DNA of 64,000 nt from the sequence record SRR20825019_2588; one strand, 5' to 3'. This document shows positions 22,048-39,112 of this stretch, piece after piece (positions within the stretch are counted from its first letter, which is position 1; every line of letters begins with the position of its first letter). The notes under the pieces were generated by a model. The model saw nothing but the letters and a program-made list of their open reading frames with translations. It was not told the origin of the DNA and searched no databases. Position numbers and translations under genes: made by a program.

Positions 22048-24273
<2,226 letters not shown>

Positions 24274-24288
24274 GCAGTAACTGGTTGT

Positions 24289-24314
24289 GTGCTGCCACAG
24301 TCATGTGGCAGCAC
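24289..24314 (+). other. Intercistronic hairpin without U-tract (possible mRNA stabiliser)
   Basis: Perfect 11-bp stem GTGCTGCCACA-GTCA-TGTGGCAGCAC just after tmd. Confidence 0.6.
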
Positions 24315-24365
24315 CTTCCCTAACCTCAGCACTCATTATTCCTATTCCAAGCTGGCAGGTGTGTC

Positions 24366-26501
24366 ATGAATGAAGCACAAGAAATAACCCGAATTCTATT
24401 CCAAGGTTTTCAGACCTCATCCGTTTATCTGTTCTATGTGATTGGCTATACGGCCATCGCGATCTTTCTCTATGGCTGTTATGTGCAGGTTAGAAAGTAT
24501 CGTCGCGGCCAACCGGATGCCGCCTGGGGTGAATTCCTGGCGCGTTTCTGGGACATGACCAAAACCATGATGACGCATCGCACTATCAAACGTCGCGATA
24601 AAGCGGCGGGTAAAGCGCATGCAGGGATATTTTTCGGTTTTGTCCTGCTGTTCATCGGCACCGCCACCATTACGCTGGAATACGACATTCTCGAACCCTT
24701 GTTCGGGATTACATTCTGGTATGGCGATTTCTATCTTTGGTTCTCGCTGATATTGGATATTGCAGGTGTGGCAGCTATTGCCGGCCTGATTTACATGATG
24801 TATCGCCGTAAATGGCTCAAATTACCCAAACTGGATTACACACGTCCTGATCGTGAACCCGGCGATCCGGACTATGACCGCAGTGCCTACCGTCGTGAAG
24901 ACTGGGCATTTCTGTGGGTCTTTATCACTATTCTCATTACCGGTTTCCTGCTGGAAGCGTCCCGTCTGATTTGGCTGATGGAGGATCCGACTGTCTGGGA
25001 GTACCGCTGGTGGTCACCGGTCGGCGCAAGCATTGCGCATCTGTTTTATGGCCTCGGTATGGGCCCGGAAGCAGCAGGCGACTTCCGTACCGGCCTGTGG
25101 TGGTTCCACGGCATCCTGGCGCTGGCCTTTGTCGCGCTGATCCCTTTTACCAAGGTCAAACATATCTTTACCGCCTCGGCGTCTTTGATGTTCCGTGATC
25201 CGATGGCCGGTAAACGACTGCCGACCGTGCCGGAAGACCAGGAAGACATCGGTGTTAAAACCATTACTGATTTTACCTGGAAGCAACTGCTTAATCTGGA
25301 TGCCTGCACCAAGTGTGGTCGTTGTCATGAAGCCTGCCCGGCCAATGCGGTGGGGGCACCGTTGTCGCCACGCGATGTGATTCTGTCGCTGCGTGAATTT
25401 GCCAACAACGCGCTGGAAAAAAAGGAACTGCCGGACGAGGTCGAGCTCGACGTTCACGGCAAGGATGTTGGCCAGGTGTTTATGGAAACTCTGTGGTCGT
25501 GCCGGACCTGTATGGCCTGTGTCGAAATCTGCCCGGTGGCGGTAGAGCATGTGCCCATTATTGTGCAGATGCGCCGTAAGCTGGTCGATGAAGGCAATAT
25601 GGAACCTATCCTGCAGAAAACGCTGCAATCGGTCCACAAAAACGGTAACTCGATGGGCGAGTCCAAGCGTAAACGCGCCAAATGGACTAAAGATCTGTCA
25701 TTTGAGATCAAAGACGCCCGTAAAGAACCGGTTGATGTGATGTGGTTCGTAGGTGACTATGCCTCGTTCGACCCACGTAACCAGGTGGTCACCAAATCGT
25801 TTGCCAAACTGATGCAGCAGGCCGGTGTCGATTTCGGATTGCTCTACGAAGCCGAAATGAATGCCGGTAATGATGTGCGTCGTGTCGGTGAGGAAGGGCT
25901 TTATGAATTCCTGGCCAATTCCAATATCAGCACGCTGGAACAATGCGAATTTAACTCGATTGTCACCACCGATCCGCATTCTTTCAACACCATCCGTAAT
26001 GAATACCCGGACTTTGGTGGTGAGTTTGAAATTCAGCATTACACGACCGTACTCAAACATCTGTTTGAAGAAGGCAAGCTGAAAATCAAGAAAAAACTCG
26101 ACTACCGTGTCACTTTCCATGATCCCTGTCATCTGGGCCGTTACAACAAAGGCTATGACGCGCCACGTGAACTGATCGAAATGATTGGTTGCGAACTGGT
26201 GGAAATGGATCGTAACCGCGATAACTCCTTCTGCTGTGGTGCCGGTGGTGGCCGTATCTGGATTCCGGATCCGGTGGGTCTGGAAAAACCATCGGAAAAC
26301 CGTATTCGTGAAGCGGGTGCGATCGACGATCTGGATGTCTTTATCGTCTCCTGTCCTAAAGATCTGACGATGTTTGAGGATGCACGTAAAACAGCGGGTT
26401 TCGAAGATAAGTTCGTGGTCAAGGAATTGATTGAACTTATCACCGAGTGTGTCGAGTTCGATATTGAAGAGCCGGAAGACGATGACACAGCTGCCGCTTG
26501 A
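24366..26501 (+). CDS. Membrane-bound Fe-S oxidoreductase (NarI-like cytochrome b + 2x[4Fe-4S] + CCG domains); probable ETF:quinone oxidoreductase of the FadF/EMO/EtfD type
   Basis: N-terminal TM region with His residues; CTKCGRCHEACP and CRTCMACVEICP; FHDPCHLGR, FCCGAGGG, SCP. Confidence 0.85.
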   Translation: MNEAQEITRILFQGFQTSSVYLFYVIGYTAIAIFLYGCYVQVRKYRRGQPDAAWGEFLARFWDMTKTMMTHRTIKRRDKAAGKAHAGIFFGFVLLFIGTATITLEYDILEPLFGITFWYGDFYLWFSLILDIAGVAAIAGLIYMMYRRKWLKLPKLDYTRPDREPGDPDYDRSAYRREDWAFLWVFITILITGFLLEASRLIWLMEDPTVWEYRWWSPVGASIAHLFYGLGMGPEAAGDFRTGLWWFHGILALAFVALIPFTKVKHIFTASASLMFRDPMAGKRLPTVPEDQEDIGVKTITDFTWKQLLNLDACTKCGRCHEACPANAVGAPLSPRDVILSLREFANNALEKKELPDEVELDVHGKDVGQVFMETLWSCRTCMACVEICPVAVEHVPIIVQMRRKLVDEGNMEPILQKTLQSVHKNGNSMGESKRKRAKWTKDLSFEIKDARKEPVDVMWFVGDYASFDPRNQVVTKSFAKLMQQAGVDFGLLYEAEMNAGNDVRRVGEEGLYEFLANSNISTLEQCEFNSIVTTDPHSFNTIRNEYPDFGGEFEIQHYTTVLKHLFEEGKLKIKKKLDYRVTFHDPCHLGRYNKGYDAPRELIEMIGCELVEMDRNRDNSFCCGAGGGRIWIPDPVGLEKPSENRIREAGAIDDLDVFIVSCPKDLTMFEDARKTAGFEDKFVVKELIELITECVEFDIEEPEDDDTAAA

Positions 26502-27867
26502 CATCGCCATGCCGGAAACGGCGACGGAACTGGTCGAAGCGGCCGTCGAGCAGGGCGATATCTACAGTGCTGCGGCAGTCTTCGGGATTGCCGATAAAAA
26601 TCAGCGCGATGCCCTCAAAGCGATTCTTTGCGGTCGCCGACGTGATGCGCTCAAGCTGGCACGCTGGGAGCATACACCGGCACAAGTCCTGGCCGTTTTG
26701 GCCGGGCTGGATGATGATGCCATCCGCTTGCGGGTGGAGAAGAATCCGGCGACCCATAGTCAGACCCTGGCTGATCTGTTCAATCATCAGGACAGTCAGG
26801 ATCTGATTGGGCTGGTTGCCCAACATGGTCATACATCGGCATCGGTTCTGTTTACGATTGTTGAGCAGGTCAGTAGTGGCGCTATCATCCGTGCTGCAGC
26901 CAGAAACCCCAATGCCAGCAATGAAGTGCTGGCGGTTATCGAAGCCCGCTTCGGTAATAAATTTGATGCCGAACTGGCCAGTCATGAAAACAGTTCGGCA
27001 AATATCCTTAAGCGGCTTTATGAACGAGGTAATCACTTCGTTCAGGCGGCAGTAGCGGCACATGCTCACTGTCCGCAGGCAGTGCTTGAGCAGGCAGTCC
27101 GTCATGACGATGTTGTGGTGGTGCGTCATGCAGCGACCAATCCAACATTAGCCGTCAAACTGCTGGGATATCTTGCCGGTCATCCTGATTATTCCGTACG
27201 ACGGGCGATTGCCTCACAACAACGGTTGTCGACCACACTGGCCAAAGAACTGGCGCAGGACAGTTCTGATTATGTCAGGCGCGCTGTGGCAGCACGTCAG
27301 GACCTCACTGCCGATATTATCGGGCTGTTGATTCATGATGCTGATCACTGGGTCAGACAATGGGTGGCACTGAGCAGCAAATTATCCGAGCAACAGTTAC
27401 AACTGCTGGCAGAGGATGAGGACAAAGAAGTCCGCCGCGCTGTCGCCAGAAATGGCAAAACCCCACCGCAGTTACTGCAACTGCTGGCAAAGGACAAACA
27501 AACCTGGGTTCGGGCCGCTGTAGCCAATCAGCCCAACACACCGCCTGAGATTCTGTCGGTGCTGGCAGATGAAGAAGAGGTGGATGTGTTAGCGGCAGTC
27601 GCACACAACCCGAATACAGCCCAGCCCATATTGCAGCGTTTGACGCATTCAGTTCTGGCTGATGTGCGTCGCGGGGTAGCGACAAACAAAGCCGCTAAAC
27701 GCGAAACGCTGCTGCCTTTAATTGAGGACCCCTTTTATCTGAACCGTTTGATGCTGGTCGGCAATCCGGTGCTCAGCCCTGAAGATAAGTGGCGTCTGTC
27801 TGATGATCCTGATCCAGCAGTACGCTTCACCCTGTTTTCCTGGTTTTCCAGGCAATACCAGCAGTAA
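26482..27867 (+). CDS. Leucine-rich-repeat-variant / HEAT-like repeat protein
   Basis: About 24-aa repeats L..LA.D....VR.AVA.NP.TP; start at ATG 26482 or 26509. Confidence 0.8.
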   Translation: MTQLPLDIAMPETATELVEAAVEQGDIYSAAAVFGIADKNQRDALKAILCGRRRDALKLARWEHTPAQVLAVLAGLDDDAIRLRVEKNPATHSQTLADLFNHQDSQDLIGLVAQHGHTSASVLFTIVEQVSSGAIIRAAARNPNASNEVLAVIEARFGNKFDAELASHENSSANILKRLYERGNHFVQAAVAAHAHCPQAVLEQAVRHDDVVVVRHAATNPTLAVKLLGYLAGHPDYSVRRAIASQQRLSTTLAKELAQDSSDYVRRAVAARQDLTADIIGLLIHDADHWVRQWVALSSKLSEQQLQLLAEDEDKEVRRAVARNGKTPPQLLQLLAKDKQTWVRAAVANQPNTPPEILSVLADEEEVDVLAAVAHNPNTAQPILQRLTHSVLADVRRGVATNKAAKRETLLPLIEDPFYLNRLMLVGNPVLSPEDKWRLSDDPDPAVRFTLFSWFSRQYQQ

Positions 27868-27915
27868 ATCACTGCACCAAAAAGCTGATGTAGACAGCAA
27901 ATTAGGAGAAATAGC

Positions 27916-28713
27916 ATGAAAATTTTAGTTGCAGTCAAAGAAGTTGCATCGCTCGATGAAGACTTTGAAATTCGTGACGATCAACTGGATGTAGACGAGG
28001 ATTTCCTGCTTTATGAGCTGAACGAATGGGATGACTTTTCCCTGGAAGAAGCCATGAGCATCAAAGAAAGATCCGATACCGAAGTGGAAGTGGTAGTCGT
28101 CTCGGTGGGTCCGGAACAGGTCGAAGAAAGCCTCAGAAAATGCCTTGCCAAGGGCGCTGATCGGGCGATCAGAGTCTGGAGCGATGAAATGGAAGGCTCT
28201 GATTCAATCACTGTCGGACGTATTCTCGCAGCCGTCGCTGAGCAAGAGAAACCGGACATGATCTTTGCCGGCGTGCAATCTTCTGATAATGCCGATGCCT
28301 CCACCGGTATTGCACTTGCTTCCTATCTGAATTGGCCTCACGCAGCGGTCGTGGCCGGACTTGATTACACCCCGGGCAGCAATAAAGCGACCGCCAGCCG
28401 TGAACTCGAAGGCGGTTTGGGACAGGAAGTAGAAATCAGCTGTCCAGCCGTTTTGACGATTCAGCTGGGTATTAACACACCGCGTTATGCGTCACTGCGC
28501 GGCATTAAGCAGGCAGCGGCCAAACCGATTGATGAAGTCAGTTTGTCCGATCTGGGTCTGACAGCAGAAGAAGTGGGTGCCGATGCGGCGTTCTCACGGG
28601 TTCGTCGCATGTACATTCCTGAAAAAGGTATGGCCACCATGATTGACGGTACTACCGCAGAGCAGGCCGCCAAGCTGGCTCAAATTATCAAAGAATTCAA
28701 GGGAGAAGCGTAA
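27916..28713 (+). CDS. etfB: Electron transfer flavoprotein beta subunit (TMADH-partner type)
   Basis: MKILVAVK, LNEWDDFSLEEA, LAKGADRA, RELEGG, PRYASLRGIK. Confidence 0.95.
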   Translation: MKILVAVKEVASLDEDFEIRDDQLDVDEDFLLYELNEWDDFSLEEAMSIKERSDTEVEVVVVSVGPEQVEESLRKCLAKGADRAIRVWSDEMEGSDSITVGRILAAVAEQEKPDMIFAGVQSSDNADASTGIALASYLNWPHAAVVAGLDYTPGSNKATASRELEGGLGQEVEISCPAVLTIQLGINTPRYASLRGIKQAAAKPIDEVSLSDLGLTAEEVGADAAFSRVRRMYIPEKGMATMIDGTTAEQAAKLAQIIKEFKGEA

Positions 28714-29672
28714 TGAAAACCATTCTTGTCGTGGCGGAAAGCCGCCAAAATGAACTCCGTCCGATCTCGCTTGAAGTGATCAGTGCAGCGCAATCGCTGC
28801 GTGAAGCTGATGACAAAGTCGTGGTTGCCATCATTGGTCAGCAGCCTGAATCCTATGTCGATGACCTGTCATTGAAAGGTGTCGATGAAATCGTTGCTGT
28901 AAAAGTCAGCTCCGAAGACTTCGATGCTGATATTCACGAAGCTGCCGTCACTTCCCTGATGGAAAGCTACACACCGGAAGTGGTGCTGTTGCCTCACTCG
29001 GTCGACAGCCTCGGCTTTGCACCGACACTGGCCCGCAAAGGTAACTATGGTTTTGCCACCGACGTTTTCAATCTGGAATATGATGGTCAGGATCTGGTTG
29101 TTACCCGTGCCGGTTACAACGAAAAAGTACATGTTGAAATGGACTTTCCAGGTAAGGACTGTGTGATTCTGACCATCCGTTCCAGCGTGTTCAAAGCGGT
29201 TGAAGAGTCCGGTAGTCCTGCTACCACCAGTCTGGATATGACGAATATCGGCAGTCGTTGCCAGAATGTCCGTTATGTCGAAGCCGAAGGCGCGGATGAC
29301 ATTGATATCACCTCGGTTGATTTCATCATGTCGATTGGCCGTGGCATCGGTGAGGAAAGCAACGTCGACGAGTTCCGTGAAATGGCGGATCTGTCCGGTG
29401 CGACCCTGTGCTGCTCACGACCGATCGCCGATTCCGGCTGGTTACCCAAATCCAGACAGGTCGGTCAATCCGGCAAGGTTGTTGGGAACTGCAAGTTGTA
29501 TGTCGCAATGGGGATTTCCGGTTCCATCCAGCATATGGCAGGGATGAAACATGTCCCTACCATCGTCGCGGTCAATACCGATCCGGGCGCGTCGATTTTC
29601 ACCATTGCCAAATACGGCATTGTCGGCGATATCTTCGAGATTGAAGAAGAGCTGCGTACCCACTTCGAGTAG
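28713..29672 (+). CDS. etfA: Electron transfer flavoprotein alpha subunit
   Basis: GRGIG, CSRPIAD.GW..RQVGQSGK, GISGSIQHMAGMK; TAATG coupling to etfB. Confidence 0.95.
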   Translation: MKTILVVAESRQNELRPISLEVISAAQSLREADDKVVVAIIGQQPESYVDDLSLKGVDEIVAVKVSSEDFDADIHEAAVTSLMESYTPEVVLLPHSVDSLGFAPTLARKGNYGFATDVFNLEYDGQDLVVTRAGYNEKVHVEMDFPGKDCVILTIRSSVFKAVEESGSPATTSLDMTNIGSRCQNVRYVEAEGADDIDITSVDFIMSIGRGIGEESNVDEFREMADLSGATLCCSRPIADSGWLPKSRQVGQSGKVVGNCKLYVAMGISGSIQHMAGMKHVPTIVAVNTDPGASIFTIAKYGIVGDIFEIEEELRTHFE

Positions 29673-30290: not shown

Positions 30291-30349
30291 TACTCAAAAA
30301 GGAGTACGCCATGATGGGAATTTCAGCACAGGACTGATTCCGATATGTT
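30291..30349 (+). promoter_or_regulatory. 7-2-7 box plus sigma70 promoter of the dmm operon
   Basis: TACTCAA-AA-AGGAGTA, 14 bp, TTTCAG-N17-TATGTT. Confidence 0.72.
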
Positions 30350-30390: not shown

Positions 30391-31539
30391 ATGAGCAATT
30401 CTACCCAACCTATCGAAGCCGTTGATTCGGCAATCACCCGTAACTCAGTGCTGAATGAACGTCATCGCGAGCTTGGATCAAAGCTGGATGATGTTATCTG
30501 GGGTATGCCAATCCCTCAGCATTACCATACTGATCCCCACGATGAGGTGGTCGCGGTCAGAACCCGTGCCGGTCTTTATGACGTATCAGCGTTGAATATT
30601 GTCAATGTCAGTGGGCCCGCTGCGTTGAAAGTGCTGGACCAACTTGTGGCGATTGATGTCACCGAACTGGAACCCGGCACGTCCCGGTTGGCAGCTGAAG
30701 TCAATGAGGAAGGCGCCCTGGTCGACGACATCATGATTATCTGTGATGCCAAGGACCAGTATCGTATTTCTCACGGTGGCGGTTGCACGCAACAGACACT
30801 GGCCAGACTGGCCGAAGGTCAGGATGTGACGATAGAACAGGATTATGACGTACATATTCTGTCACTACAGGGGCCACGCTCCGTAGATGTGCTGAACCCT
30901 GAAGTCGATGTCGACCTGGCCAAATTACCTTATTTCAAACATGTCGAAACACAGCTTTTTGGCTTTGATGTGATTATCGCCCGCGGTGGCTATTCCGGTG
31001 AGCGCGGTTACGAAGTCTATTGCAGCGCTAATGATGCGGTGCATCTGTGGGACAGCATTCTGGAAAAAGGCCATCGTTACGGCGTGATTGCTGCCTCCTG
31101 GGATTCACTTGACCTGACCCGCGTTGAAGCCGCCTTGCTGTTCTATCCATTCGATATGCCTGAGGGCGATACAACGCCGTGGGAAGTCAATATGAACTGG
31201 TGTATCGACCAGAACAAGAAAGGTGACTACGTCGGTAAAGACGCCCTGCTGAAACTGAAAGGCCGTGAACGTTTCAAACAGGCAGGCCTCGTTTGCCAGA
31301 GTAGTGAAGCCATGCCGGAAGGCGCCAAAATTATCAAAGACGGTAAGGAAATCGGCGTTGTCACCAGTGCCAGCTTTAGCCGTTACCTGATGAAATCGCT
31401 AGCGATGGTACATATCAAACCCGAGTTTTCACAACTTGGGACGCAGGTGGTAGTTGCCGCTGACACGCCGGTCAAAGCCCACGTTGTTAAGACTCCTTTC
31501 TACGACCCGATGCGTCTTCGTACCCATCCCGAACAATAG
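30391..31539 (+). CDS. dmmD: Dimethylamine monooxygenase-associated aminomethyltransferase (GcvT-like, THF-binding)
   Basis: AGLYDVS, LSLQGP, RGGYSGERGYE, RVEAAL, PFYDP; first gene of the dmmDABC order. Confidence 0.85.
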   Translation: MSNSTQPIEAVDSAITRNSVLNERHRELGSKLDDVIWGMPIPQHYHTDPHDEVVAVRTRAGLYDVSALNIVNVSGPAALKVLDQLVAIDVTELEPGTSRLAAEVNEEGALVDDIMIICDAKDQYRISHGGGCTQQTLARLAEGQDVTIEQDYDVHILSLQGPRSVDVLNPEVDVDLAKLPYFKHVETQLFGFDVIIARGGYSGERGYEVYCSANDAVHLWDSILEKGHRYGVIAASWDSLDLTRVEAALLFYPFDMPEGDTTPWEVNMNWCIDQNKKGDYVGKDALLKLKGRERFKQAGLVCQSSEAMPEGAKIIKDGKEIGVVTSASFSRYLMKSLAMVHIKPEFSQLGTQVVVAADTPVKAHVVKTPFYDPMRLRTHPEQ

Positions 31540-31599
31540 TAAAGACCCTGCCTGAGTCGTCACAGGGAGGTGACCGGGCAACAAGATGAGGAAAAAGCG

Positions 31600-32202
31600 A
31601 TGGAAAGAGGATATTGGATCAGAAGCAAACCCTTGTATGACTCACTGGTCTGGAAGCAACAGGCGACTGGTCATGTCGTTATCGCCCAGGGCGAAGGCGG
31701 GATTGCGGTACTGAAATTATTTCAACAAATGTGTCCCCGTGAACCAATCAAGTTGTTGTTTGCTGATGATGATGCTGCAACCAGAAAATACGCTGACATT
31801 ATTCAGTCACTGGTGCCGGAAGGTTTGCAGATTTGTGAGTCGGAAAAGGATGTTCTGGCCGAGCTCAGAAAGCAGTTACCTGACTGTCTGATGGGAACAC
31901 AGTTTTATGTCGCCGGCAGTGAAGCCTTTATCTGGGCGGTGATGGACGAACTGAAAGTCTATGGCGTGCAGGACAGAAACGTCGAGAAAGAGCTGAGTGG
32001 GACCCTGGCACGCTCAGTCTACTGCGTGCATTGCAAGACAACAGATAAAAACGTCCACCACAGCATTCACCAATGCAGTGGCTGTGGTCGTCACCTGTTT
32101 GTCCGTGATCACTTTTCCCGCAGGCTGGGCGCTTATATGGGCGTCATGGTCGATGCTGAGGAGCCGGGCAATATTCCGGCAGCAGAGGAGATTTATCCAT
32201 GA
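31600..32202 (+). CDS. dmmA: Dimethylamine monooxygenase subunit DmmA
   Basis: IRSKP.Y, YVAGSE.F.W, C-terminal CVHC..CSGC..LFVRDHFSRRL; ATG 31600 with GAGG RBS. Confidence 0.85.
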   Translation: MERGYWIRSKPLYDSLVWKQQATGHVVIAQGEGGIAVLKLFQQMCPREPIKLLFADDDAATRKYADIIQSLVPEGLQICESEKDVLAELRKQLPDCLMGTQFYVAGSEAFIWAVMDELKVYGVQDRNVEKELSGTLARSVYCVHCKTTDKNVHHSIHQCSGCGRHLFVRDHFSRRLGAYMGVMVDAEEPGNIPAAEEIYP

Positions 32203-33152
32203 GTATTTTGAATGTCAAAGTGGCTGAGGTGGAACAGGTGACCGATGTGGTCAAACACTTCACCCTGGTCCAGGAAAACGGTGAACCTTTACCGCGCTTT
32301 TCCGGAGGCAGTCATGTGGTGGTGTCGATGAATATCAATGGCCGTATCCACCGTAATCCTTACTCTTTGATGGGCTCGACTGCCAATACCGAGAGTTACC
32401 ATATTTCTGTCCGTAAGCAGGAAAACTCGCGCGGTGGCTCGGTATTCATGCATGAACAGGTCAAGCCTGGCGCCAGTCTGCAGATCACTTACCCGACAAA
32501 TCTGTTTGCGATTTCCAAAATGGGCCGTCGACACATTCTGATTGCCGGTGGTATCGGTATTACCCCGTTTATGTCGCAAATCTCGGATTTGAACCGACTG
32601 GGCTACGACTATGAACTGCATTATGCCTATCGTTCGCCAGAGAATGCGGCCTTCCGTGAACAGCTTGAAGCCATGTGCGGCGATCGCGTTCATTTCTACA
32701 TCGACAGTGAAGGCGAGCGACTGGATATTCCGGAATTACTTCGTCACCAGCCGCTGGGCACCCATGTTTACACCTGCGGGCCTGAACCGATGGTGAAAGC
32801 ATTGCATCTGCATGCCAAAAATCTGGGCTGGCCCGACAATCACGTTCACAGCGAAGAGTTTACCGCGCCGCCTTCGGGTGATGAGTTCACGGTTGAGCTG
32901 GCATTGAGCGGTATGGAAGTGACCGTGTCTGGCGATATGAGCATGCTGGAAGCCATGGAGGAAGCCGGTGCCGAGCCACCGTTCCTGTGCCGTGGCGGTG
33001 CCTGCGGCCGGTGTGAACTGGAAGTGGTTTCCTGCGACGGCGTCATTATGCATAACGACCATTATCTGTCCGACCACGAAAAATCCGAGGGCAGGAGCAT
33101 CATGCCGTGTGTATCACGTGCCAAGTGCTCAAAACTGGTGGTCAACCTTTGA
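32199..33152 (+). CDS. dmmB: Dimethylamine monooxygenase reductase subunit (PDR/VanB family, flavin + 2Fe-2S)
   Basis: NPYSL, SRGGS, AGGIGITP, YTCGP, CRGGACGRC..C. Confidence 0.88.
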   Translation: MSILNVKVAEVEQVTDVVKHFTLVQENGEPLPRFSGGSHVVVSMNINGRIHRNPYSLMGSTANTESYHISVRKQENSRGGSVFMHEQVKPGASLQITYPTNLFAISKMGRRHILIAGGIGITPFMSQISDLNRLGYDYELHYAYRSPENAAFREQLEAMCGDRVHFYIDSEGERLDIPELLRHQPLGTHVYTCGPEPMVKALHLHAKNLGWPDNHVHSEEFTAPPSGDEFTVELALSGMEVTVSGDMSMLEAMEEAGAEPPFLCRGGACGRCELEVVSCDGVIMHNDHYLSDHEKSEGRSIMPCVSRAKCSKLVVNL

Positions 33153-33159
33153 GGAATAA

Positions 33160-34215
33160 GTGATGAATATGGCTAAAAATATCGCATTTAAACAAGAAAC
33201 TTTCCGCGACGACTATACCTACAGCAACTCTGCAGAAGCGATTCGTCGTTTCCCGTTCCCGTTTGCTGAAGATGAATACATGTACAGCGTCAATATTGAA
33301 CAACATGACGGCGGTGCACCAGGTTCCGTATTTGAGCATGCTATCGATATTGATGAACACTACGTGGCGGAATGTGAAGACAGACGCATCACGCTGGAAA
33401 AAGACCCCGGCCGCTATATCGCATTGCCACATATGATGGATGCGCAGTGGGATATGGTGGAATTGGTGATGGAATCGCTTTCCACCGATTACCCGGACTT
33501 ATTCCAGCTGAGCAAAGATGGTGACAACTGGCACTGGATTAATAAGCCATTAAACATCGACCAAAAGTTCGTGTTTGGTGACGAGTCCACACTGCCTATG
33601 GATCCGTTTGAGTATGTTGGTCGTCAGGTTCAGGGCGACTGGGTGGTGATGGATCAACGTGATGATGATCTGTTTGCCGATATGGGTATTATCACCAGCC
33701 AGGCCGACTGGTCGCTGGCATTTGATGCCGGAATGTCTTTCAAAGAATGGCATGGTCCCGTACCACAGGCGAATGAACTGGGTATTTTCGATCGGGCGTT
33801 GAAATATCTGCTGCATTTGCAGTACGGCAGTCCTGTTCGACGCCTCAACTGGACTATGACCGTCAACCCGCGTCTGGATACCTCTCCGGAAGAATATCCC
33901 TTGTGGGGACCGGATAATGTCTCAGTCACCGCAGATAACGTGGGTCAAAAAGTGCATCTTCGTGTGGAGTTGCAGGCTTTGTTCAGGTTGCCTCGCAGTA
34001 ATGCGATGGCCTTCAGTATCCGTGGATATCTGGCCAGCATTGACGACTTAAAAACCTATCCACGCTGGGCTAAACGTCTGCGCCGGGTTCTCACCAATCT
34101 GCATCCCGACTTATCTGAATACAAAGGGCTGGATAGCTATCGGCAACTGGTTATCGATTATCTGGCACCGATGGATGATGGCGCGGATCTTGGGTTGGGA
34201 ACACATCCCGAATAA
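33160..34215 (+). CDS. dmmC: Dimethylamine monooxygenase heme subunit (DUF3445)
   Basis: RFPFPF..D.YMYSVN, ADWSL.FD.GM.F.EWHGPVP, RRLNW, LRVELQ.L.RLPRS. Confidence 0.88.
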   Translation: MMNMAKNIAFKQETFRDDYTYSNSAEAIRRFPFPFAEDEYMYSVNIEQHDGGAPGSVFEHAIDIDEHYVAECEDRRITLEKDPGRYIALPHMMDAQWDMVELVMESLSTDYPDLFQLSKDGDNWHWINKPLNIDQKFVFGDESTLPMDPFEYVGRQVQGDWVVMDQRDDDLFADMGIITSQADWSLAFDAGMSFKEWHGPVPQANELGIFDRALKYLLHLQYGSPVRRLNWTMTVNPRLDTSPEEYPLWGPDNVSVTADNVGQKVHLRVELQALFRLPRSNAMAFSIRGYLASIDDLKTYPRWAKRLRRVLTNLHPDLSEYKGLDSYRQLVIDYLAPMDDGADLGLGTHPE

Positions 34216-34283
34216 ACACCAAACAGAACGATGAAGTTGTAGTCAGGGGTAAATATTCACCAACCAAGAGGAAGGATTTAAGA

Positions 34284-35051
34284 ATGAAAAAATTATTAAC
34301 AATGATGGCTTTGGCGGGGACTGCAGTCACTGCCAATACCGCGGTTCATGCTGAAGAAGTTTCACCACACAGCTTCAGCTCCAATGTCGGCCTGTTCAGT
34401 TCCTATGTGTTCCGTGGCATTGACTATAGTGATGAAGATGTCGCTTTACAGGGCGGTTTTGACTATGCGCATGCCAGTGGCTGGTATGCGGGCGTGTGGG
34501 CGTCGACGCTGGAAGAGGATCTTAACGTCGGTAACAGCATTGAAGTCGATTTCTATGGCGGTTATTACCATCAGTTCACAGAAGACTTTGCTGTGGATGT
34601 GGGTCTGCTGCAGTTTTACTATCCGGACCGTGAAAAGTACAACGGAGAGGATTTTGATACAACCGAAGCTTATGTTGCTGCGACTTGGAAATGGTTTACC
34701 GCCAAATACAGCCGCACACTGACAGACTGGGGCGGCATCAATAATAAATCTGCCGGCATCGATGGCTATGCTAACGGTGACACAAAAGGTACGGGTTATT
34801 ATGAGCTGAACTTTGACTATGGCCTGCCGATGGGAATTAACTTTACTGCCCATGTGGGTCGTCTGGATGTTGAAAATTATAGCGACTTTGATTACACGGA
34901 TTACCTGATCGGCCTGAGCAAGGACTTTTCACTTGCCGGTTCGGAAGGCTGGACCGTGGGTGTGAATTATACCGACACCAATGCTGATGAAGATTGGTGG
35001 GGTGATCGCGGTGATGACCAGTTTATCGCCTATATCTCCCGCAGTTTCTAA
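34284..35051 (+). CDS. TorF-family (TIGR02001-like) putative outer-membrane porin
   Basis: Signal peptide; S.YVFRGI, ALQGGFDY.H.SGWYAGVWAS, EVDFYGGY; C-terminal Phe. Confidence 0.85.
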   Translation: MKKLLTMMALAGTAVTANTAVHAEEVSPHSFSSNVGLFSSYVFRGIDYSDEDVALQGGFDYAHASGWYAGVWASTLEEDLNVGNSIEVDFYGGYYHQFTEDFAVDVGLLQFYYPDREKYNGEDFDTTEAYVAATWKWFTAKYSRTLTDWGGINNKSAGIDGYANGDTKGTGYYELNFDYGLPMGINFTAHVGRLDVENYSDFDYTDYLIGLSKDFSLAGSEGWTVGVNYTDTNADEDWWGDRGDDQFIAYISRSF

Positions 35052-35066
35052 TCAGATTGACTGCTG

Positions 35067-35097
35067 AAAAGGAGTCACATGGTGACTCCTTTTTTTT
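35067..35097. terminator. Bidirectional terminator
   Basis: AAAA-GGAGTCAC-ATG-GTGACTCC-T8 between convergent genes. Confidence 0.85.
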
Positions 35098-35134: not shown

Positions 35135-36532
35135 TTATATTGTTGTGTGGTCATTGATGACTTGCTCAAGGCCATGCTGAAGTGCCGAATAATCATCATT
35201 AGTCAGATCGATGATCACGCCTTCCAGGGTTAACAGTTCGTCACTGCCGGAAAAGATGCCTTTGCCCCGTTCCATGACCCATTTCACCTTATTGCTGCGG
35301 GTCAGAATACGGTAAATAATCTGGAAGCTGCGCTGTTTATTGATCTGGCTCTGAACATGCTCCCAGACACGTTGCTGATCGTCAGGGTAGATAAGCTGCA
35401 TATAGTTGAAGTGCAGCGAGTTAGTGATTTCATAGGGCTGGTATTCAGTGACTTCGAGACAACCTTCACTGACGAAGTCAAAGGTCCAGTTACGGTCATT
35501 TTTACAACGATAGAGCATGCAGGGGATATTGGGCATGATCATATCCGTGGCAGTGCGGGCATTGGCACGCAAACCGGCAGAAGTGAGTTTCATACGGCTG
35601 ATATCGGTCAGTGTGCCGATGATGCTGGTCCGCTCACCTTTGAGTCTGGAGGTGGTGGAGGCGCGCATTTCGAACCATTGAGACCGGCCGTTTTTGGCGA
35701 TCAGTCGCAGCTCGAATTGGCACTGCTGACGTTTACCCTCGGTGAGCGCATTGAGTCGGGCTTCGGCCAATGGGATGTCTTCCGGATGGATATATGAGAA
35801 TAAGGGTTTGTTCAGGCTTTCTTCGGGGCCGTAGTCGAGTAAGCGTTGCCAGGCGGGGTTGAGGAAAATGAAAGCCTGATCGACATCAATCTGAAACACC
35901 ACCTGTTCAATGCGATCAATCAGCGTGTGGTAAGTCAGCTCTTCGGCAGCGGTTTGTGAGGCGGGCTCAAGTGAACTGGTGGTGGTAAATTGCAGCAGAA
36001 ACTGATTCGTGGCCTCAGCAGCAGCCAGAGGAGATAATGACATATGAACGGGGATTGTCGTACCATCAACATAAAGCATCCTGATCACCATGGTCTCGGT
36101 GGAAGCCTGGTCACTCTGTTCACTGAACAAATCGGTCAACACCTGATGGCTGCTGGGGTGAACCAGATTGGTCAGGGGCATATCCGTGATGAAGTCACGC
36201 ATACCACTCATGCCCAGTTCTTTGAGAAAGGCATTATTGGCAAATTTGATGCTGTAGCCTTCGACCACCGCGGCCGGTGTCGACAGTTTGGTAGAAATAT
36301 CATGCCCCCAGCCAACGTGATCCAGCTTGCTGGGCTGGTTAGCGCTGAGGCTGCGCCGTTGAACCCTGGGATAAATATTGATGATTAGCAGTGCCGACAG
36401 AAACACAGCAAGCACCGATGCCAGCATCGACACATGGACTTTGAAAGGTGCGGTGCTATCCCACCAGAAGCCGAAAACCATCGCAAAAATGCCGCTAAGC
36501 ATGACGAGACAAAATAGTAATAAGGTCATCAC
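35135..36532 (-). CDS. Membrane-anchored triple-PAS protein with no output domain
   Basis: Two N-terminal TMs; PAS motifs (FANNAF..LVHP; FLNPAW..IHPED..W.E; FVSEG..IYPDD..YRI..KWV.E.G); ends shortly after the last PAS. Confidence 0.85.
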   Translation of the reverse strand: MMTLLLFCLVMLSGIFAMVFGFWWDSTAPFKVHVSMLASVLAVFLSALLIINIYPRVQRRSLSANQPSKLDHVGWGHDISTKLSTPAAVVEGYSIKFANNAFLKELGMSGMRDFITDMPLTNLVHPSSHQVLTDLFSEQSDQASTETMVIRMLYVDGTTIPVHMSLSPLAAAEATNQFLLQFTTTSSLEPASQTAAEELTYHTLIDRIEQVVFQIDVDQAFIFLNPAWQRLLDYGPEESLNKPLFSYIHPEDIPLAEARLNALTEGKRQQCQFELRLIAKNGRSQWFEMRASTTSRLKGERTSIIGTLTDISRMKLTSAGLRANARTATDMIMPNIPCMLYRCKNDRNWTFDFVSEGCLEVTEYQPYEITNSLHFNYMQLIYPDDQQRVWEHVQSQINKQRSFQIIYRILTRSNKVKWVMERGKGIFSGSDELLTLEGVIIDLTNDDYSALQHGLEQVINDHTTI

Positions 36533-36577
36533 GATTACCTTTCATTTCAGACCTTGGTCAGAAGAGCGCAATTAGTC

Positions 36578-38401
36578 ATGGCGGCAAAGCGAAATATTAT
36601 TCTCAGTTTCCTGAACAGCTTCAGCCGGCGGGCACTCTATGCCAAGTTGATTATGTTGTTACTGTGTGTCGCCACCAGCATTTTGTTGATGCAGGCGGGC
36701 ACCATCTTTCTGCTAGATTATATCCCTTCAAGCCAGTCAGCCATAAACAAAATCAACGAACAGAAGCTTTACTGGCACAGGCAACTCTCCCATGTTCAGG
36801 CGATACAGTTACAGGAAGCCAGTGCGACTTTTAAGTCAATGCAGCGACACTTTCTGGATACAGCGGATCCCGAAGTGCTATGGATGCTACGTCAGGACAA
36901 CCCGGAAGTGGTGGCGGCAGTCCACAAAGTAGAGCGTGAGCAGAAAAACTTTATTGATGTGGCCCAGTTTAATCTGCGGGTGACCGCGCAGTTACGCGTC
37001 GCTGAGCGGGTAGCCAGTGCCTACGATGAACTCGAAACTGCGCTGCATAACGACAGCAAAATCAAACAATCCATCATCGGCTTGCTGCAGGCTATCAGCC
37101 TGATTTTTGTGCTCAGTTGCATTCTGGTGCTGGCTGTCAGTGCCAGGAAATTGCTGGTAGAGCGTATCGATAATTTATTGGGCTTCATTCACCTAAAAAC
37201 CGGCGAAAAGCCTGAACGACGTGCTGTAGATGAGTTTGCTGAACTGGAACACCGCGTTTCTGAACTTTCTGCACAGATGGAAAGTTATGAATCAGAAGTC
37301 ACCTGGGCTCACCGAACCAGTGAACACATGCGGGTGTTGATTCGCGCCCAGGACTTTCTGCTTCAATTCATTGAAACCGCCAGTGAGGATGTACTCAGTG
37401 AACGCACCTTATTGAAATTCCTGTATTCACTGGAACGTACCATGAACTTCGCTAATGCGGCACTGATATACACTGATGATGCCGCTGTGATTGCCAGGGA
37501 ACGTATTATCTTTTCCCACCATAAACCGCCAGTCCTGAGTAATCAGATCTTCGATGAATTAATGCAGTCCGGCGTGACGACCTTTGACTATCGATCTGCA
37601 GACGATGATCAACTGAGTTGTCTGGGCGTGACTTTCTCGGGTGTCAGTAACGGCATTGGTGTGTTGCTGGTTGAAATGGAGCAGGGACGGTTTCTGGAAG
37701 ACTCTGAAATAAGAGTGTTGGAAATTACCGCTCGTTTGCTGGCCATGACAGCCAAGTATCAGAGTCATGATGAAGAGGGCAGGCGACTCGCGGTGCTCGA
37801 AGAACGGGCTTCGATTGCACGTGAATTGCATGACTCACTGGCGCAGTCACTGTCGTTCATGAAAATACAGGTGGCGCGTTTACAGTCCAAAACCAATGAC
37901 AGTGAACTGGCTCCGGTAGTACAGGAGTTGCGGGAAGGGCTGGACAATGCCTATCGTGAATTGCGCGAGCTGCTGACCACGTTTCGGGTTCATATGGATC
38001 TGCGAGGGCTGGGCTACGCCATCCAGGCGACAATTGATGAGTTCTCGCAGCGTTCGCAACTGAATATCAGTTTTGATAACCGCCTGGTCAATTGTCGTCT
38101 GACCGTCAACGAAGAATTTCATATCCTGCACGTGGTGCGTGAAGCCCTGTCGAATATTGTTCGCCACTCCGGGGCAAAGAATGTCACGATATTGATGCAG
38201 CTACAGGCCAGTGGTGAGGTCGAATTGATAATTGATGATGATGGTGTGGGTTACACACCGGCATCGAGCACCTATGATCACCATGGACAGGTGATAATGA
38301 AAGAGCGGGCCCAGTCGCTGGGCGGTGAGGTCGAGGTTATGGCAAGGCGGTATGGCGGCACGCGAGTGCACCTGTATTTCATGCCGAAATTAGCACAATA
38401 A
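36578..38401 (+). CDS. NarX/NarQ-like sensor histidine kinase (HisKA_3) with a degenerate P-box
   Basis: Two TMs, HAMP/GAF-like region, ERASIARELHDSLAQSLS, REALSNIVRHS, DDGVG, HG..IMKERA; P-box region reads AINKINEQKLYWHR. Confidence 0.88.
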   Translation: MAAKRNIILSFLNSFSRRALYAKLIMLLLCVATSILLMQAGTIFLLDYIPSSQSAINKINEQKLYWHRQLSHVQAIQLQEASATFKSMQRHFLDTADPEVLWMLRQDNPEVVAAVHKVEREQKNFIDVAQFNLRVTAQLRVAERVASAYDELETALHNDSKIKQSIIGLLQAISLIFVLSCILVLAVSARKLLVERIDNLLGFIHLKTGEKPERRAVDEFAELEHRVSELSAQMESYESEVTWAHRTSEHMRVLIRAQDFLLQFIETASEDVLSERTLLKFLYSLERTMNFANAALIYTDDAAVIARERIIFSHHKPPVLSNQIFDELMQSGVTTFDYRSADDDQLSCLGVTFSGVSNGIGVLLVEMEQGRFLEDSEIRVLEITARLLAMTAKYQSHDEEGRRLAVLEERASIARELHDSLAQSLSFMKIQVARLQSKTNDSELAPVVQELREGLDNAYRELRELLTTFRVHMDLRGLGYAIQATIDEFSQRSQLNISFDNRLVNCRLTVNEEFHILHVVREALSNIVRHSGAKNVTILMQLQASGEVELIIDDDGVGYTPASSTYDHHGQVIMKERAQSLGGEVEVMARRYGGTRVHLYFMPKLAQ

Positions 38402-38429: not shown

Positions 38430-39068
38430 ATGCATAACATCATAAGAGTATTGATAATCGATGATCACCCTTTATTCAGAAAAGGGGTGAGTCAGATTAT
38501 TTCGGATGACCCCAATTTTGAAGTGGTGGGTGAGGCGGCTTCGGGCCAGGAAGGACTGGATCTGGGAGAGGAGCTACAACCCGATCTGGTTCTGCTGGAC
38601 TTGAATATGAAAGGGATGGACGGTCTGGAAACCCTGCGTCGTTTTAAACAGACCGACTTGCTGGCACGTTATGTCATTTTGACAGTGTCTGATTCTGAAG
38701 ACGACCTGATGGAGGCGCTGAAATCGGGGGCTGACGGTTATCTTCTCAAAGATATGGAACCGGAAGATCTTCGTGCCAACCTGATGAAAGCGTCTGTTGG
38801 TGTAACGGTATTACAGGACAGCCTGACCGATGTATTGAAAAAAGCGCTGACGGAACCTGATACCAAAGTGAGCGTGGCCTCCGCCGGCCTGACTGATCGT
38901 GAGAACGAGATTCTGGATTGTCTGGCTGAAGGAATGAATAATAAGAACATTGCCCGCAAGCTGGGTATCAGCGATACCACGGTGAAAGTGCATATCAAGA
39001 ATATTTTGAGAAAGCTGAATTTAACCAGCCGTCTGGAAGCGGCAGTGTGGAAACATCAACAGAAATAA
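38430..39068 (+). CDS. NarL-family response regulator (REC + LuxR HTH)
   Basis: IDDHPLFRKG, LLDLNM, GYLLKDMEP, LTDRE.EIL...ISDTTVKVHIK. Confidence 0.93.
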   Translation: MHNIIRVLIIDDHPLFRKGVSQIISDDPNFEVVGEAASGQEGLDLGEELQPDLVLLDLNMKGMDGLETLRRFKQTDLLARYVILTVSDSEDDLMEALKSGADGYLLKDMEPEDLRANLMKASVGVTVLQDSLTDVLKKALTEPDTKVSVASAGLTDRENEILDCLAEGMNNKNIARKLGISDTTVKVHIKNILRKLNLTSRLEAAVWKHQQK

Positions 39069-39112
39069 AAAAAGCGCCGGTAGCAAGGGGTACGATGCTA
39101 CCGGCGCTTTTT
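39067..39112. terminator. Bidirectional terminator
   Basis: A-run-GCGCCGGTAGCA-loop-TGCTACCGGCGC-T-run between convergent genes. Confidence 0.85.

Follow-up and report, generated by a model that had tools for sequence, protein, structure and literature searches.

A sensor histidine kinase, a NarL-type response regulator and a divergently encoded membrane PAS protein probably form, at an estimated probability of about 70%, the regulator of a methylated-amine island in the stretch of DNA analyzed here (64,000 nucleotides of sequence record SRR20825019_2588, hereafter the window). Most likely, this module activates the trimethylamine and dimethylamine breakdown genes of methylotrophs. Judged by its sequence, the kinase is NarX-derived, i.e., it has retained the full NarX architecture and has lost the nitrate-binding G-x-x-R. 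We propose that a nitrate NarX/NarL system was re-wired to methylated-amine catabolism as one conserved signaling module; we infer from sequence that the regulator binds its DNA boxes, which way it regulates and what the module responds to.

Architecture and descent of the kinase

The kinase gene (36578..38401, plus strand) encodes 607 amino acids from the ATG at 36578, which is the most frequent length among the kinase homologues. Its open reading frame covers 36554..38401 (+) and would yield 615 amino acids if started at the alternative TTG at 36554. The domain order is TM1, four-helix periplasmic domain, TM2, HAMP, S-helix, GAF-like domain, HisKA_3 and HATPase_c, the latter two being detected with Pfam. 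AlphaFold models (pLDDT 79 and 82) have a secondary structure of TM1 with H1, H2, H3, H4 with TM2 and HAMP, an alpha/beta GAF-like domain, DHp and CA. Taken together, Pfam, model secondary structure, hhalign and Foldseek assign the NarX/NarQ architecture to the kinase. TM1 spans residues 22–45 (36641..36712, +) and is directly followed by the exit motif LDYIP, which contains Asp47, Tyr48 and Pro50. Alignment and models place the periplasmic four-helix domain at residues 46–165 (36713..37072, +).

Over its core, the kinase shares 36% identity with E. coli NarX. BLASTP aligned the kinase with a Pseudomonas NarX (L031) at 28% identity over residues 17–607 (E 1e-64), and the two proteins are collinear over their full length. 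Moreover, hhalign of 13 family N-termini against 26 canonical NarX N-termini gave a probability of 97% and an E value of 1.1e-10 over 220 collinear columns; with E. coli NarX alone, only the core was aligned, i.e., the 26-sequence NarX profile was needed to reveal the N-terminal homology. Full-length Foldseek searches were dominated by kinase cores, and the N-terminus was therefore folded and searched separately. The top five PDB matches of this N-terminal model were all NarQ sensor-TM-HAMP fragments (TM 0.53–0.77), and a structure search independent of Foldseek ranked NarQ second of 48,161 entries (Z 12.2, 213 residues aligned). For the sensor domain alone, four-helix bundles in general score almost as high as NarQ. 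PDB sequence searches with the N-terminal 260 amino acids found no homologue (best E 0.22, plant hemoglobins), and those with the full kinase found DesK-type cores only. A tree of 78 kinases resolved the family as a single clade (SH-aLRT 99) among P-box-bearing kinases.

The kinase stayed below the cut-offs of the NCBIfam models for NarX (210 bits, cut-off 578) and NarQ (205.5 bits, cut-off 553). The Pfam PilJ sensor domain (PF13675) matched none of the 13 family N-termini, even at E ≤ 10. Language-model features put the kinase N-terminus closest to PilJ clusters (0.97), which we take as a lead only.

The NarX P-box has the motif A-I-N-x-A-G-S-L-R-M-Q-S-Y-R-L, in which N is conserved to 99% and G and R to 100%, and its G-x-x-R binds nitrate (PMC8199190, available text). 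An altered P-box following TM1 of a NarX-like kinase had been the starting point of the original prediction, and we indeed found the segment SAINKINEQKLYWHR (residues 54–68; 36737..36781, +) at the place of the P-box, following the hydrophobic TM1 stretch (residues ~22–45). The proposed alignment to NarX, run with BLASTP and hhalign, was collinear and confirmed the register: BLASTP pairs QSAINKINEQKLYWHR of the kinase with AAVINHAGSLRMLTYR of the Pseudomonas NarX, and the independent profile–profile comparison of the 13 family and 26 NarX N-termini gave the same result. In this twice reproduced register, the P-box glycine is replaced by Asn60 and the nitrate-binding arginine by Lys63, as had been predicted. 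G-x-x-R is present in none of 12 family rows, whereas 65 of 66 other NarX-like rows have it. The claim that the preceding AINK was kept is true for this kinase but not for the family, where position 57 is Asn in 3 of 33 members; the identity of Asn57 with NarX was therefore probably retained by chance rather than conserved as a family trait.

The PAS–kinase–regulator module and its predicted regulon

On the opposite strand, 45 bp from the kinase start, lies a divergent gene (35135..36532, −) for a membrane-anchored PAS-only protein of 465 amino acids. Its N-terminus forms a TM hairpin that carries a conserved GxWW...APF loop; three PAS-like domains follow, and there is no output domain. We compared 13 loci, i.e., this stretch and 12 loci with full-length kinase relatives from Methylophaga, Methylophilaceae and Hyphomicrobium. 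In all 12 relatives, the kinase gene is flanked on one side by the divergent gene for the membrane triple-PAS protein and on the other by a gene for a NarL-like regulator; with the window, the PAS gene is present in 13 of 13 loci. The 142 homologues of the PAS protein, all with a length of about 302–475 amino acids, come from the same named genera.

Genes for dimethylamine monooxygenase (dmm) and/or of the trimethylamine dehydrogenase type adjoin the kinase gene in 11 of the 12 relatives; in the remaining locus, L003, the trio is present without a dmm or trimethylamine dehydrogenase gene and without a box in the DNA examined. The module tracks dmm and trimethylamine dehydrogenase genes across Gamma-, Beta- and Alphaproteobacterial methylotrophs. 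The window was stated earlier to lack nitrate reductase genes, and tblastn with E. coli NarK/G/H/I agreed, finding none at E ≤ 1e-20 and at least 30% coverage. Orthologues located mainly beside nar/nap genes would have spoken against a link to methylamines; NarK/G/H/I homologues occurred in 0 of 13 family loci versus 48 of 68 loci of other, P-box-bearing NarX-like kinases. In four of five relatives' genomes searched, the kinase is the sole NarX-like kinase, and one of the five has a second one. A cytoplasmic molybdopterin oxidoreductase encoded at 42775–44898 scored far under all NCBIfam cut-offs, including those for NasC/NarG/NapA.

The regulator gene (38430..39068, +) encodes a receiver and a GerE/LuxR helix-turn-helix domain (Pfam Response_reg, GerE). 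The protein is 52% identical to E. coli NarL and passes the NCBIfam NarL cut-off (281.5 bits, cut-off 250). All 13 family regulators share its recognition helix TVKVHxK and retain the acceptor Asp. A hairpin terminator 3′ of the gene (39069..39112; −32.2 kcal/mol, z −6.6), equaled in folding by none of 200 shuffles, separates the convergent kinase–regulator operon from a cupin gene.

For the search of regulator sites we set the pattern a priori from the E. coli consensus, i.e., two NarL heptamers TACYYMT in 7-2-7 arrangement (consensus as quoted in PMC4886647, available text), and compared the counts with 100 shuffles. Three window sites matched with at most one mismatch (0.15 expected; none of the 100 shuffles reached three), and eight with at most two mismatches (2.99 expected; no shuffle had as many). 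At three mismatches, the window showed no enrichment (34 found, 33.3 expected). The loci of the 12 relatives contained 32 NarL-type matches versus 11.8 ± 3.2, and a box was found 60–125 bp upstream of the first dmm gene in all ten loci where that gene start is visible; no box was found in the part of locus L002 that was examined. A matrix trained solely on nine sites of other genomes found eight sites of at least 12 bits in the window (shuffles: mean 0.05, maximum 1), with the next score at 7.0. All eight sites are intergenic, lie within the methylated-amine island and belong to six promoter regions.

The box TACTCAAAAAGGAGTA (30291..30306; 15.4 bits, one mismatch to TACYYMTNNAKRRGTA) lies 84 bp upstream of dmmD. 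The predicted target operon dmmDABC with a TorF-family porin gene (30391..35051, +) ends at a strong terminator (35066–35094). The box TACTACCTAGGAGGTA (21987..22002; 20.8 bits) is located 78 bp upstream of the trimethylamine dehydrogenase gene, whose product matches trimethylamine dehydrogenase of PDB entry 1djn over its full length with 1478 bits. This gene is the first of a second group of predicted targets (22081..29672, +), followed by genes for an Fe-S/CCG oxidoreductase, an LRV-repeat protein, ETF beta and ETF alpha. Elsewhere, boxes precede the trimethylamine dehydrogenase-type gene by 90 bp (L007), 78 bp (L008) and 134 bp (L001).

Two adjacent boxes (488–503 and 512–527; 13.7 and 23.3 bits) are flanked by a partial gene for an XRE-type regulator and the operon of N-methylglutamate dehydrogenase. 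The second is just 31 bp upstream of the called mgdA start, which counts against the proposed regulation; in L010, a box lies 165 bp upstream of the mgdA homologue. A further box (14075..14090; 22.1 bits) precedes the permease gene at 14248–15738 by 157 bp. A weaker one (15987..16002; 17.0 bits) lies upstream of folE2-ribBA-EamA (16199–19286) and was missed by the pattern search with up to three mismatches because it has four mismatches to the E. coli consensus. The last two boxes (39559–39574 and 39786–39801; 16.3 and 16.7 bits) lie between the cupin gene (−) and an Amt-family transporter gene (+). Upstream of the cupin gene, boxes are found at 59–91 bp in L012 and L004, and upstream of the Amt gene at 86 bp in L012. 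Sites found independently in other genomes precede genes of the trimethylamine dehydrogenase type and permease, mgdA, Amt and cupin genes.

One candidate was discarded: the site at 45545–45560 has one mismatch to the E. coli consensus but was outside the best 25 matrix matches (25th at 3.5 bits). The region between the kinase and PAS genes contains no box, and autoregulation is hence not indicated. Canonical NarXL loci (L013–L080) have 66 box matches in 1.13 Mb, i.e., the box type is common there, and a second NarL-type regulator, where one exists, could therefore use the boxes as well.

At the level of the system, the earlier claim that the kinase belongs to methylamine metabolism gains support from the synteny in 11 of 12 relatives, from the boxes before dmm, tmd, mgd and transporter genes and from the lack of nar genes at all 13 loci. 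In the mechanism that we propose, the phosphorylated regulator would bind the 7-2-7 boxes, mostly 60–135 bp upstream of start codons. In the presence of trimethylamine or dimethylamine, this binding would switch on tmd-etf, dmmDABC-porin and mgd as well as cofactor and transporter genes.

Candidate routes of signal input

TM1 is the most conserved N-terminal element of the kinase family, with a mean pairwise identity of 0.46 (13 sequences) or 0.56 (33 sequences) compared with 0.28 in 26 canonical NarX. The 15-residue P-box equivalent has a mean pairwise identity of 0.25 versus 0.23 in the rest of the periplasmic domain, and the true NarX P-box reaches 0.70. Because the P-box equivalent is no better conserved than its surroundings and TM1 is conserved best, the signal more likely enters at the membrane or via the PAS partner. 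Passage of the signal through a partner protein had been the alternative named in the original prediction, and it fits better with the unusually conserved TM1 and the divergent PAS gene in 12 of 12 relatives. We give an input route through membrane or partner about even odds.

In such a route, no rebuilt P-box would read the stimulus. Instead, TM1 with its LDYIP exit and the TM hairpin of the PAS protein would read it jointly at or in the membrane, and/or a cytoplasmic consequence of amine oxidation would be reported by the cytoplasmic PAS domains. Kinase output would pass through HAMP, S-helix and GAF-like domain in the manner of NarX. Within the PAS protein, the TM hairpin (0.42) is conserved about as highly as the PAS domains (0.47–0.54). 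More tentatively, the periplasmic bundle may bind no ligand and the kinase may be a transmitter that an obligatory triple-PAS partner gates in the membrane with its TM hairpin. Methylated amines or their oxidation product might then be sensed by interfacial residues (Asp47-Tyr48-Pro50 of the kinase, the Gly-x-Trp-Trp...Ala-Pro-Phe loop of the partner) or by the partner PAS domains. A complex prediction for kinase residues 1–480 and the PAS protein, run without alignments, had a score of 0.00 and a mark of 0.34 and thus favored neither contact nor its absence.

The kinase could also be a direct periplasmic receptor that binds methylammonium, dimethylamine or trimethylamine at or near the old nitrate site with aromatic and acidic side chains and signals by a NarX-type piston. 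The methylated-amine context of the island would suit such a receptor, as would the NarQ-like sensor fold with its preserved P-box register. Aromatic boxes with an acid commonly bind methylated ammonium groups. Asp47, Tyr48, Pro50, Trp66, Trp102, Tyr149, Ala155, Asp159 and Lys163 are the conserved periplasmic residues of the family; Trp102, Tyr149, Asp47 and Asp159 are conserved to 97–100% in 33 nonredundant sequences, and Trp66 (31 of 33) lies one turn past the old arginine position. However, Trp66 is the sole conserved site beside variable neighbors, i.e., position 61 (Q8/E7/A6...), position 63 (K14/E6/R5/Q5) and position 65 (Y13/L10/F7) in the same 33 members. The earlier proposal that the substituted Glu61, Lys63 and Tyr65 form a new methylammonium site was hence not supported, given also that the segment is conserved no better than the rest of the domain, unlike the true ligand motif of NarX with its 0.70. 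The periplasmic domain is moreover the least conserved folded part of the kinase (0.33), and the L008 kinase lacks about 16–20 periplasmic residues. Since the E-x-K of the motif Asp159/Glu161/Lys163 is aligned with a membrane-proximal motif also found in canonical NarX, these residues may serve signaling rather than ligand binding. We consider a direct receptor unlikely.

A kinase reading the transport state of a neighboring Amt- or APC-family permease, as UhpB reads UhpC, would leave the PAS protein incidental. The island transporter genes are present and bear boxes, the regulator gene has an APC-type permease gene as its neighbor in L006, L007 and L010 and an Amt-family transporter gene in L012 and the window, and the conserved TM1 suggests an intramembrane partner. 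Yet no one transporter is conserved at the module: Amt was found in 2 and a perm3-type permease in 4 of 13 loci in the DNA examined, compared with 13 of 13 for the PAS gene, and this reading appears improbable. We regard it as most improbable that the system is still linked to nitrate or nitrite, with amine oxidation by oxygen-independent dehydrogenases coupled to nitrate respiration and nitrate sensed through other residues or through cross-talk with a canonical NarX. In favor of this reading, the regulator scores above the NarL cut-off, its boxes fit the consensus of E. coli NarL, a second NarX-like kinase exists in one of the five genomes, and denitrification and narXL are documented for some Methylophaga and Hyphomicrobium strains (PMC11526790, available text). 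But the G-x-x-R that is 100% conserved in nitrate sensors (PMC8199190, available text) is missing from 12 of 12 family rows, nar genes are found at 0 of 13 loci versus 48 of 68, four of five genomes have no other NarX-like kinase, and the boxes precede amine-catabolic, not respiratory, genes.

Comparison with known regulatory systems

In the literature searched, mostly outside subscription journals and without supplements, we found no description of this NarX-derived methylamine module. According to the available text of two 2026 papers, it remains poorly understood how methylated-amine use is regulated (PMC13199381, PMC13390433), and a NarX-type kinase is not mentioned in these portions. Methylophaga, Methylophilaceae and Hyphomicrobium are major consumers of trimethylamine and dimethylamine in seawater, soil and wastewater, and the regulators described to date are one-component proteins that act in the monooxygenase route. 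For the dehydrogenase/monooxygenase route of these groups, the module offers a candidate master switch together with a predicted operator sequence and six predicted target promoters. It may also be a case of sensor re-use in which the ligand motif decays, a TM helix and a partner take over, and regulator and DNA site stay nearly unchanged. If the kinase is indeed gated in the membrane by its PAS partner, this would add a new input mode to the NarX class and yield the first defined trimethylamine/dimethylamine sensor in methylotrophs. If the stimulus is trimethylamine or dimethylamine, the parts could make a biosensor for these odorous, health-relevant amines.

Methylated-amine catabolism is regulated by the AraC-type TmaR and by TmoR of Ruegeria pomeroyi and by SecR of Aminobacter (atypical response regulators), which are often encoded in-cluster. 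In the available text of the sources, these regulators are either one-component or lack a kinase and act on the tmm/tdm (monooxygenase) route or on the serine cycle, and SecR has neither a phosphorylation motif nor a kinase (PMC13390433, PMC13199381). Unlike these, the module described here has a complete His-Asp pair, with the acceptor Asp in 13 of 13 regulators, in methylotrophs with trimethylamine dehydrogenase.

With NarX-NarL and NarQ-NarP of E. coli, the module shares the seven-element kinase architecture with a core 36% identical to NarX, and a sensor-TM-HAMP part similar to NarQ in profile and predicted fold. The regulator (52% identical to NarL) has an identical recognition-helix core, and the boxes match the heptamer consensus in the 7-2-7 layout. 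In contrast to NarX and NarQ, the family kinase has no G-x-x-R and no conserved P-box, is not recognized by the NarX/NarQ or PilJ family models, is found beside nar genes at none of 13 loci and is always accompanied by the divergent membrane PAS gene. Its TM1 is far more conserved than that of NarX, and its predicted regulon is amine catabolism.

TorS/TorT/TorR of E. coli is a two-component system for TMAO that needs a third protein; the periplasmic domain of TorS is helical. TorS is a hybrid kinase with phosphorelay, TorT a periplasmic binding protein and TorR an OmpR-type regulator. Two-component control for a methylated amine compound is likewise what we propose here; however, Pfam found no receiver or Hpt domain in our kinase, the island has no binding-protein gene, the regulator is of GerE/NarL type, and the partner would be a cytoplasmic PAS protein anchored in the membrane. 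Closest in the proposed mode of input are UhpB-UhpC and LiaS-LiaF, HisKA_3 kinases like the one described here that receive their input from a membrane partner and not from a ligand site of their own. These kinases are partnered by a transporter homologue or a small membrane protein, whereas in the present module the candidate partner is a triple-PAS protein.

A NarX-like module in a methylated-amine island

The window is a methylated-amine island with N-methylglutamate pathway genes (559–10126), a trimethylamine dehydrogenase gene (TMADH, 22081–24273; full-length match to PDB 1djn, 1478 bits) and the dimethylamine monooxygenase genes dmmDABC (30391–34215). It also holds permeases, folE2/ribBA, ribH, an Fe-S/CCG oxidoreductase, ETF beta/alpha and a TorF-family porin. 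Beyond the signalling genes lie a small cupin gene (minus strand), an Amt-family transporter, a Cys/Met PLP enzyme and, 3' of the latter at the island edge, a cytoplasmic molybdopterin oxidoreductase of 707 residues with an N-terminal 4Fe-4S motif (42775–44898). This oxidoreductase was far under all NCBIfam cut-offs, with the DMSO/selenate reductase family (316 bits) and formate dehydrogenase alpha (280 bits) as top models. Homologues of E. coli NarK/G/H/I were absent from the window, in agreement with the original prediction that it lacks nitrate reductase genes. We also noted a small membrane ORF of 104 residues (19627–19941) flanked by the EamA and large permease genes, which we take to resemble an SMR-type (SugE/EmrE-like) exporter of quaternary ammonium or guanidinium compounds. 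Just outside the island, genes for sucrose-phosphate synthase/phosphatase, a PfkB kinase and an amylosucrase-like alpha-amylase (47060–52919) are probably a compatible-solute sucrose cycle without relation to the kinase module.

The kinase ORF (36554–38401, plus strand) encodes 615 residues from a TTG or 607 from an ATG at 36578, the latter being the most frequent length among homologues. Residues 54–68, SAINKINEQKLYWHR, follow immediately C-terminal to a hydrophobic helix. Pfam matches were confined to HisKA_3 and HATPase_c; the NCBIfam NarX and NarQ models spanned most of the length at 210 bits (cut-off 578) and 205.5 bits (cut-off 553), respectively. The next gene (38430–39068) encodes a receiver-GerE regulator that exceeded the NCBIfam NarL cut-off (281.5 versus 250 bits) and shares 52% identity with E. 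coli NarL. The TVKVHxK recognition helix and the acceptor Asp were the same in all 13 family regulators and E. coli NarL. Divergent from and upstream of the kinase, a 465-residue PAS protein (35135–36532, minus strand) combines an N-terminal TM hairpin with PAS domains and has no output domain. The two start codons are 45 bp apart (36533–36577), so both promoters must overlap adjoining coding sequence; this gap contains no NarL-type box. The spacing is likewise tight in related loci. Terminators at 35066–35094 and 39069–39112 set apart three units, i.e., dmmDABC-porin, the PAS gene and the kinase-regulator pair.

When 1.84 billion representative proteins were searched with a profile of the first 240 residues, only 30 matched at E ≤ 0.001, 12 of 535–618 residues and 18 fragments of 56–314 residues, none exceeding 618; the kinase family is narrow, with a single architecture. 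Homologues with a named source come from Methylophaga, Methylobacillus, Methylophilaceae and Hyphomicrobium and are publicly annotated as 'histidine kinase' or 'NarX'. Among 80 loci from one-genome-per-species contigs, 12 carried near-full-length matches (L001–L012; Methylophilaceae seven, Methylophaga two, Hyphomicrobium two, an unclassified Pseudomonadota MAG one). The divergent PAS gene, kinase and regulator occur in the same order in all 12, and 11 have a dmm and/or trimethylamine-dehydrogenase-family gene in the available DNA; L003 alone has none, its genes including an SSF symporter and an MFS transporter. NarK/G/H/I homologues were found in none of the 12, versus 48 of the 68 loci of other NarX-like kinases, a distribution opposite to the nar-adjacent one that the original prediction had named as speaking against it. 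In five relatives' genomes the top NarX-model match was always the family kinase (200–233 bits), and only one had a second full-length NarX-like gene. At E ≤ 1e-20 the PAS protein had 142 homologues. Of these, the 120 listed measured 302–475 residues, the shortest few being truncated, and their sources were the genera named above, with one Glaciimonas in addition. At least 27 of the longest contigs (at least 10 kb) had the same size in the kinase and PAS match lists, which is only a proxy for shared contigs. Hyphomicrobium (Alpha) and Methylophaga (Gamma) kinases are nested within those of Methylophilaceae (Beta) in the family clade (L001–L012) of the kinase tree, which suggests that the whole amine island may have spread horizontally among methylotrophs.

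Probable descent from NarX, and the nitrate site

The kinase core shares 36% identity with E. coli NarX. BLASTP against a Pseudomonas NarX aligned kinase residues 17–607, with QSAINKINEQKLYWHR falling on AAVINHAGSLRMLTYR, and a profile-profile comparison of 13 family with 26 canonical NarX N-termini (220 collinear columns, probability 97%, E 1.1e-10) placed the nitrate-binding P-box in the same register. AlphaFold models of the full length (pLDDT 79.2) and of the N-terminal 240 residues (82.2) predicted the order TM1 into H1, two or three shorter helices, H4 into TM2 and HAMP, an alpha/beta GAF-like domain, DHp and CA. NarQ sensor-TM-HAMP fragments were the top five Foldseek PDB hits of the N-terminal model (E 1.7e-3 to 7e-3, TM 0.53–0.77), and in a search independent of Foldseek NarQ ranked second of 48,161 (Z 12.2, 213 residues aligned). 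Designed four-helix bundles scored nearly equally on the sensor domain alone, hence the fold by itself proves little, and the case for NarX-likeness rests on collinearity across sensor, TM and HAMP plus the profile match. The Pfam PilJ model matched none of the 13 family N-termini; by language-model features the N-terminus was nearest to PilJ/nitrate-sensor clusters (0.97, a lead only).

In a quick, midpoint-rooted tree of 78 kinase cores the family formed a single clade (SH-aLRT 99) among kinases that bear the P-box; E. coli NarX and NarQ were more distant. Its sister, a Paraburkholderia kinase, also has no P-box. Descent from a nitrate sensor is the simplest reading, and both the proposed NarX-like nature of the kinase and the proposed P-box register are confirmed. 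At the sister locus (L027, 7693–14759) the kinase (9692–11476) lies with a divergent PAS-PAS-GGDEF protein (658 residues), a LuxR-type regulator and a large APC-family permease; it is possibly another NarX lineage that was put to new use with a PAS partner.

Nitrate-sensing kinases carry the motif A-I-N-x-A-G-S-L-R-M-Q-S-Y-R-L, with N at 99% and G and R at 100%, and bind nitrate through G-x-x-R (PMC8199190). The kinase has Asn60 and Lys63 at the Gly and Arg positions. G-x-x-R was absent from all 12 family rows and present in 65 of the 66 others (61 by regular expression; L031, L046, L052 and L074 by eye; L027 without). In 33 non-redundant members (<75% identity, from 117 full-length matches) the Gly-equivalent position was mostly N12/H8/Y6 and the Arg-equivalent K14/E6/R5/Q5. 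The 'AINK' described as kept is not a family trait, since Asn57 occurs in 3 of 33, and Trp66 (31/33) is the sole conserved residue of the segment. Mean pairwise identity in the 26 canonical NarX was 0.70 for the 15-residue P-box versus 0.23 for the remaining periplasmic domain; for the 13 family N-termini the same measure gave 0.25 versus 0.23. As judged from these alignments, the nitrate site is lost, and no conserved replacement is apparent in the P-box segment. The original observation is confirmed and its interpretation partly supported. The prediction was right that the system is tied to methylamines and has given up nitrate sensing. Its acidic and Tyr/Trp methylammonium site finds no support save Trp66; the remodelled P-box as binding site is probably wrong.

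Conservation instead lies in TM1 (0.46 in the family versus 0.28 in NarX; 0.56 in the 33-sequence set) and the LDYIP motif at its exit (Asp47 and Tyr48 100%, Pro50 94%). Trp102, Tyr149 and the membrane-proximal Asp159-x-Glu-x-Lys163 ahead of TM2 are also conserved, the last aligning in part with a similar canonical NarX motif. At one Hyphomicrobium locus (L008, region 10001–10672) the kinase is short of about 16–20 periplasmic residues and the PAS protein is shorter and divergent (387-residue ORF); the regulator is retained, and a TMADH-family gene still has a box 78 bp ahead of it.

Predicted operators

NarL sites often have a 7-2-7 inverted heptamer arrangement. As the recognition helix is the same as in E. 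coli NarL, we searched for the NarL heptamer, consensus TACYYMT (PMC4886647), in this form. The window contained three matches at ≤1 mismatch (0.15 expected; 0/100 shuffles reached three) and eight at ≤2 (2.99 expected; 0/100 shuffles), without enrichment at 3 mismatches (34 versus 33.3). The 12 loci together had 32 matches at ≤2 mismatches versus 11.8 ± 3.2 in 30 shuffles. All ten loci in which the start of the first dmm gene is visible, i.e., the window (1 mismatch), eight loci (≤2) and L010 (3), have a box 60–125 bp upstream of it. A weight matrix trained on nine sites from other genomes, the window excluded, found eight sites at ≥12 bits in the window (shuffles: mean 0.05, maximum 1; next score 7.0), all intergenic and within the island, with none in the 18 kb past it. 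These predicted boxes precede mgdA (488, 512), a permease (14075), folE2-ribBA-EamA (15987), trimethylamine dehydrogenase (21987) and dmmD (30291), or lie between cupin and Amt (39559, 39786). A partial XRE-type HTH regulator gene (2–316, minus strand) is divergent from the N-methylglutamate dehydrogenase operon, and with boxes 488–503 and 512–527 between them the mgd promoter may be under dual control. In other genomes, sites outside the training set preceded trimethylamine-dehydrogenase-type genes (L001, L007, L008), the large APC permease (L006, L007, L010), mgdA (L010) and Amt/cupin (L012).

Canonical NarXL loci are also rich in this box type (66 matches in 1.13 Mb), which fits a NarL-type site; other NarL-type regulators, where present, could use these boxes as well. 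We rejected TAGTTATAGATGAGTA (45545–45560) as a family box. It differs from the E. coli NarL 7-2-7 consensus at one position and is found 29 bp ahead of a gamma-glutamyl-cyclotransferase-like gene. It was outside the 25 best matrix matches (25th, 3.5 bits), and we regard it as probably fortuitous or as another kind of site.

Signal input and comparison with known regulators

Synteny and conserved, predicted NarL-type boxes tie this NarXL-derived module without nitrate site to genes for TMA/DMA oxidation and product handling. We propose that, when methylated amines are available, the phosphorylated regulator would activate the boxed promoters. Input would have left the periplasmic P-box for the membrane region and/or the PAS partner, because the P-box conservation peak is gone, TM1 is now the most conserved N-terminal element, the TM hairpin of the PAS protein (0.42) is as conserved as its PAS domains (0.47–0.54), and a PAS partner is present in every locus. 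Signalling through a partner protein, the alternative offered originally, is hence favoured. The kinase could still bind a periplasmic ligand directly, for which the conserved Trp66, Trp102, Tyr149, Asp47 and Asp159 speak; the vanished P-box peak and the ubiquitous PAS partner lead us to prefer membrane or partner input. The module may respond to TMA or DMA themselves, or to a product or redox effect of oxidising them. As DMA oxidation is what the loci have in common (dmm, or a dehydrogenase 63–65% identical to TMADH), DMA is a sensible starting candidate.

We found no description of the PAS-kinase-regulator module in full-text literature, where subscription journals are thinly covered and an older description is possible. 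The passages covered from two 2026 papers (PMC13390433, PMC13199381) mention no NarX-type kinase, Methylophaga or trimethylamine dehydrogenase, and describe regulation of methylated-amine use as poorly understood. The module offers testable outputs, i.e., an operator sequence, six predicted target promoter regions, an obligatory PAS partner and a conservation shift from P-box to TM1. The two 2026 papers report TmaR (AraC-type) and TmoR as regulators for Ruegeria (PMC13390433), and for Aminobacter the SecR regulators, which lack a kinase (PMC13199381).
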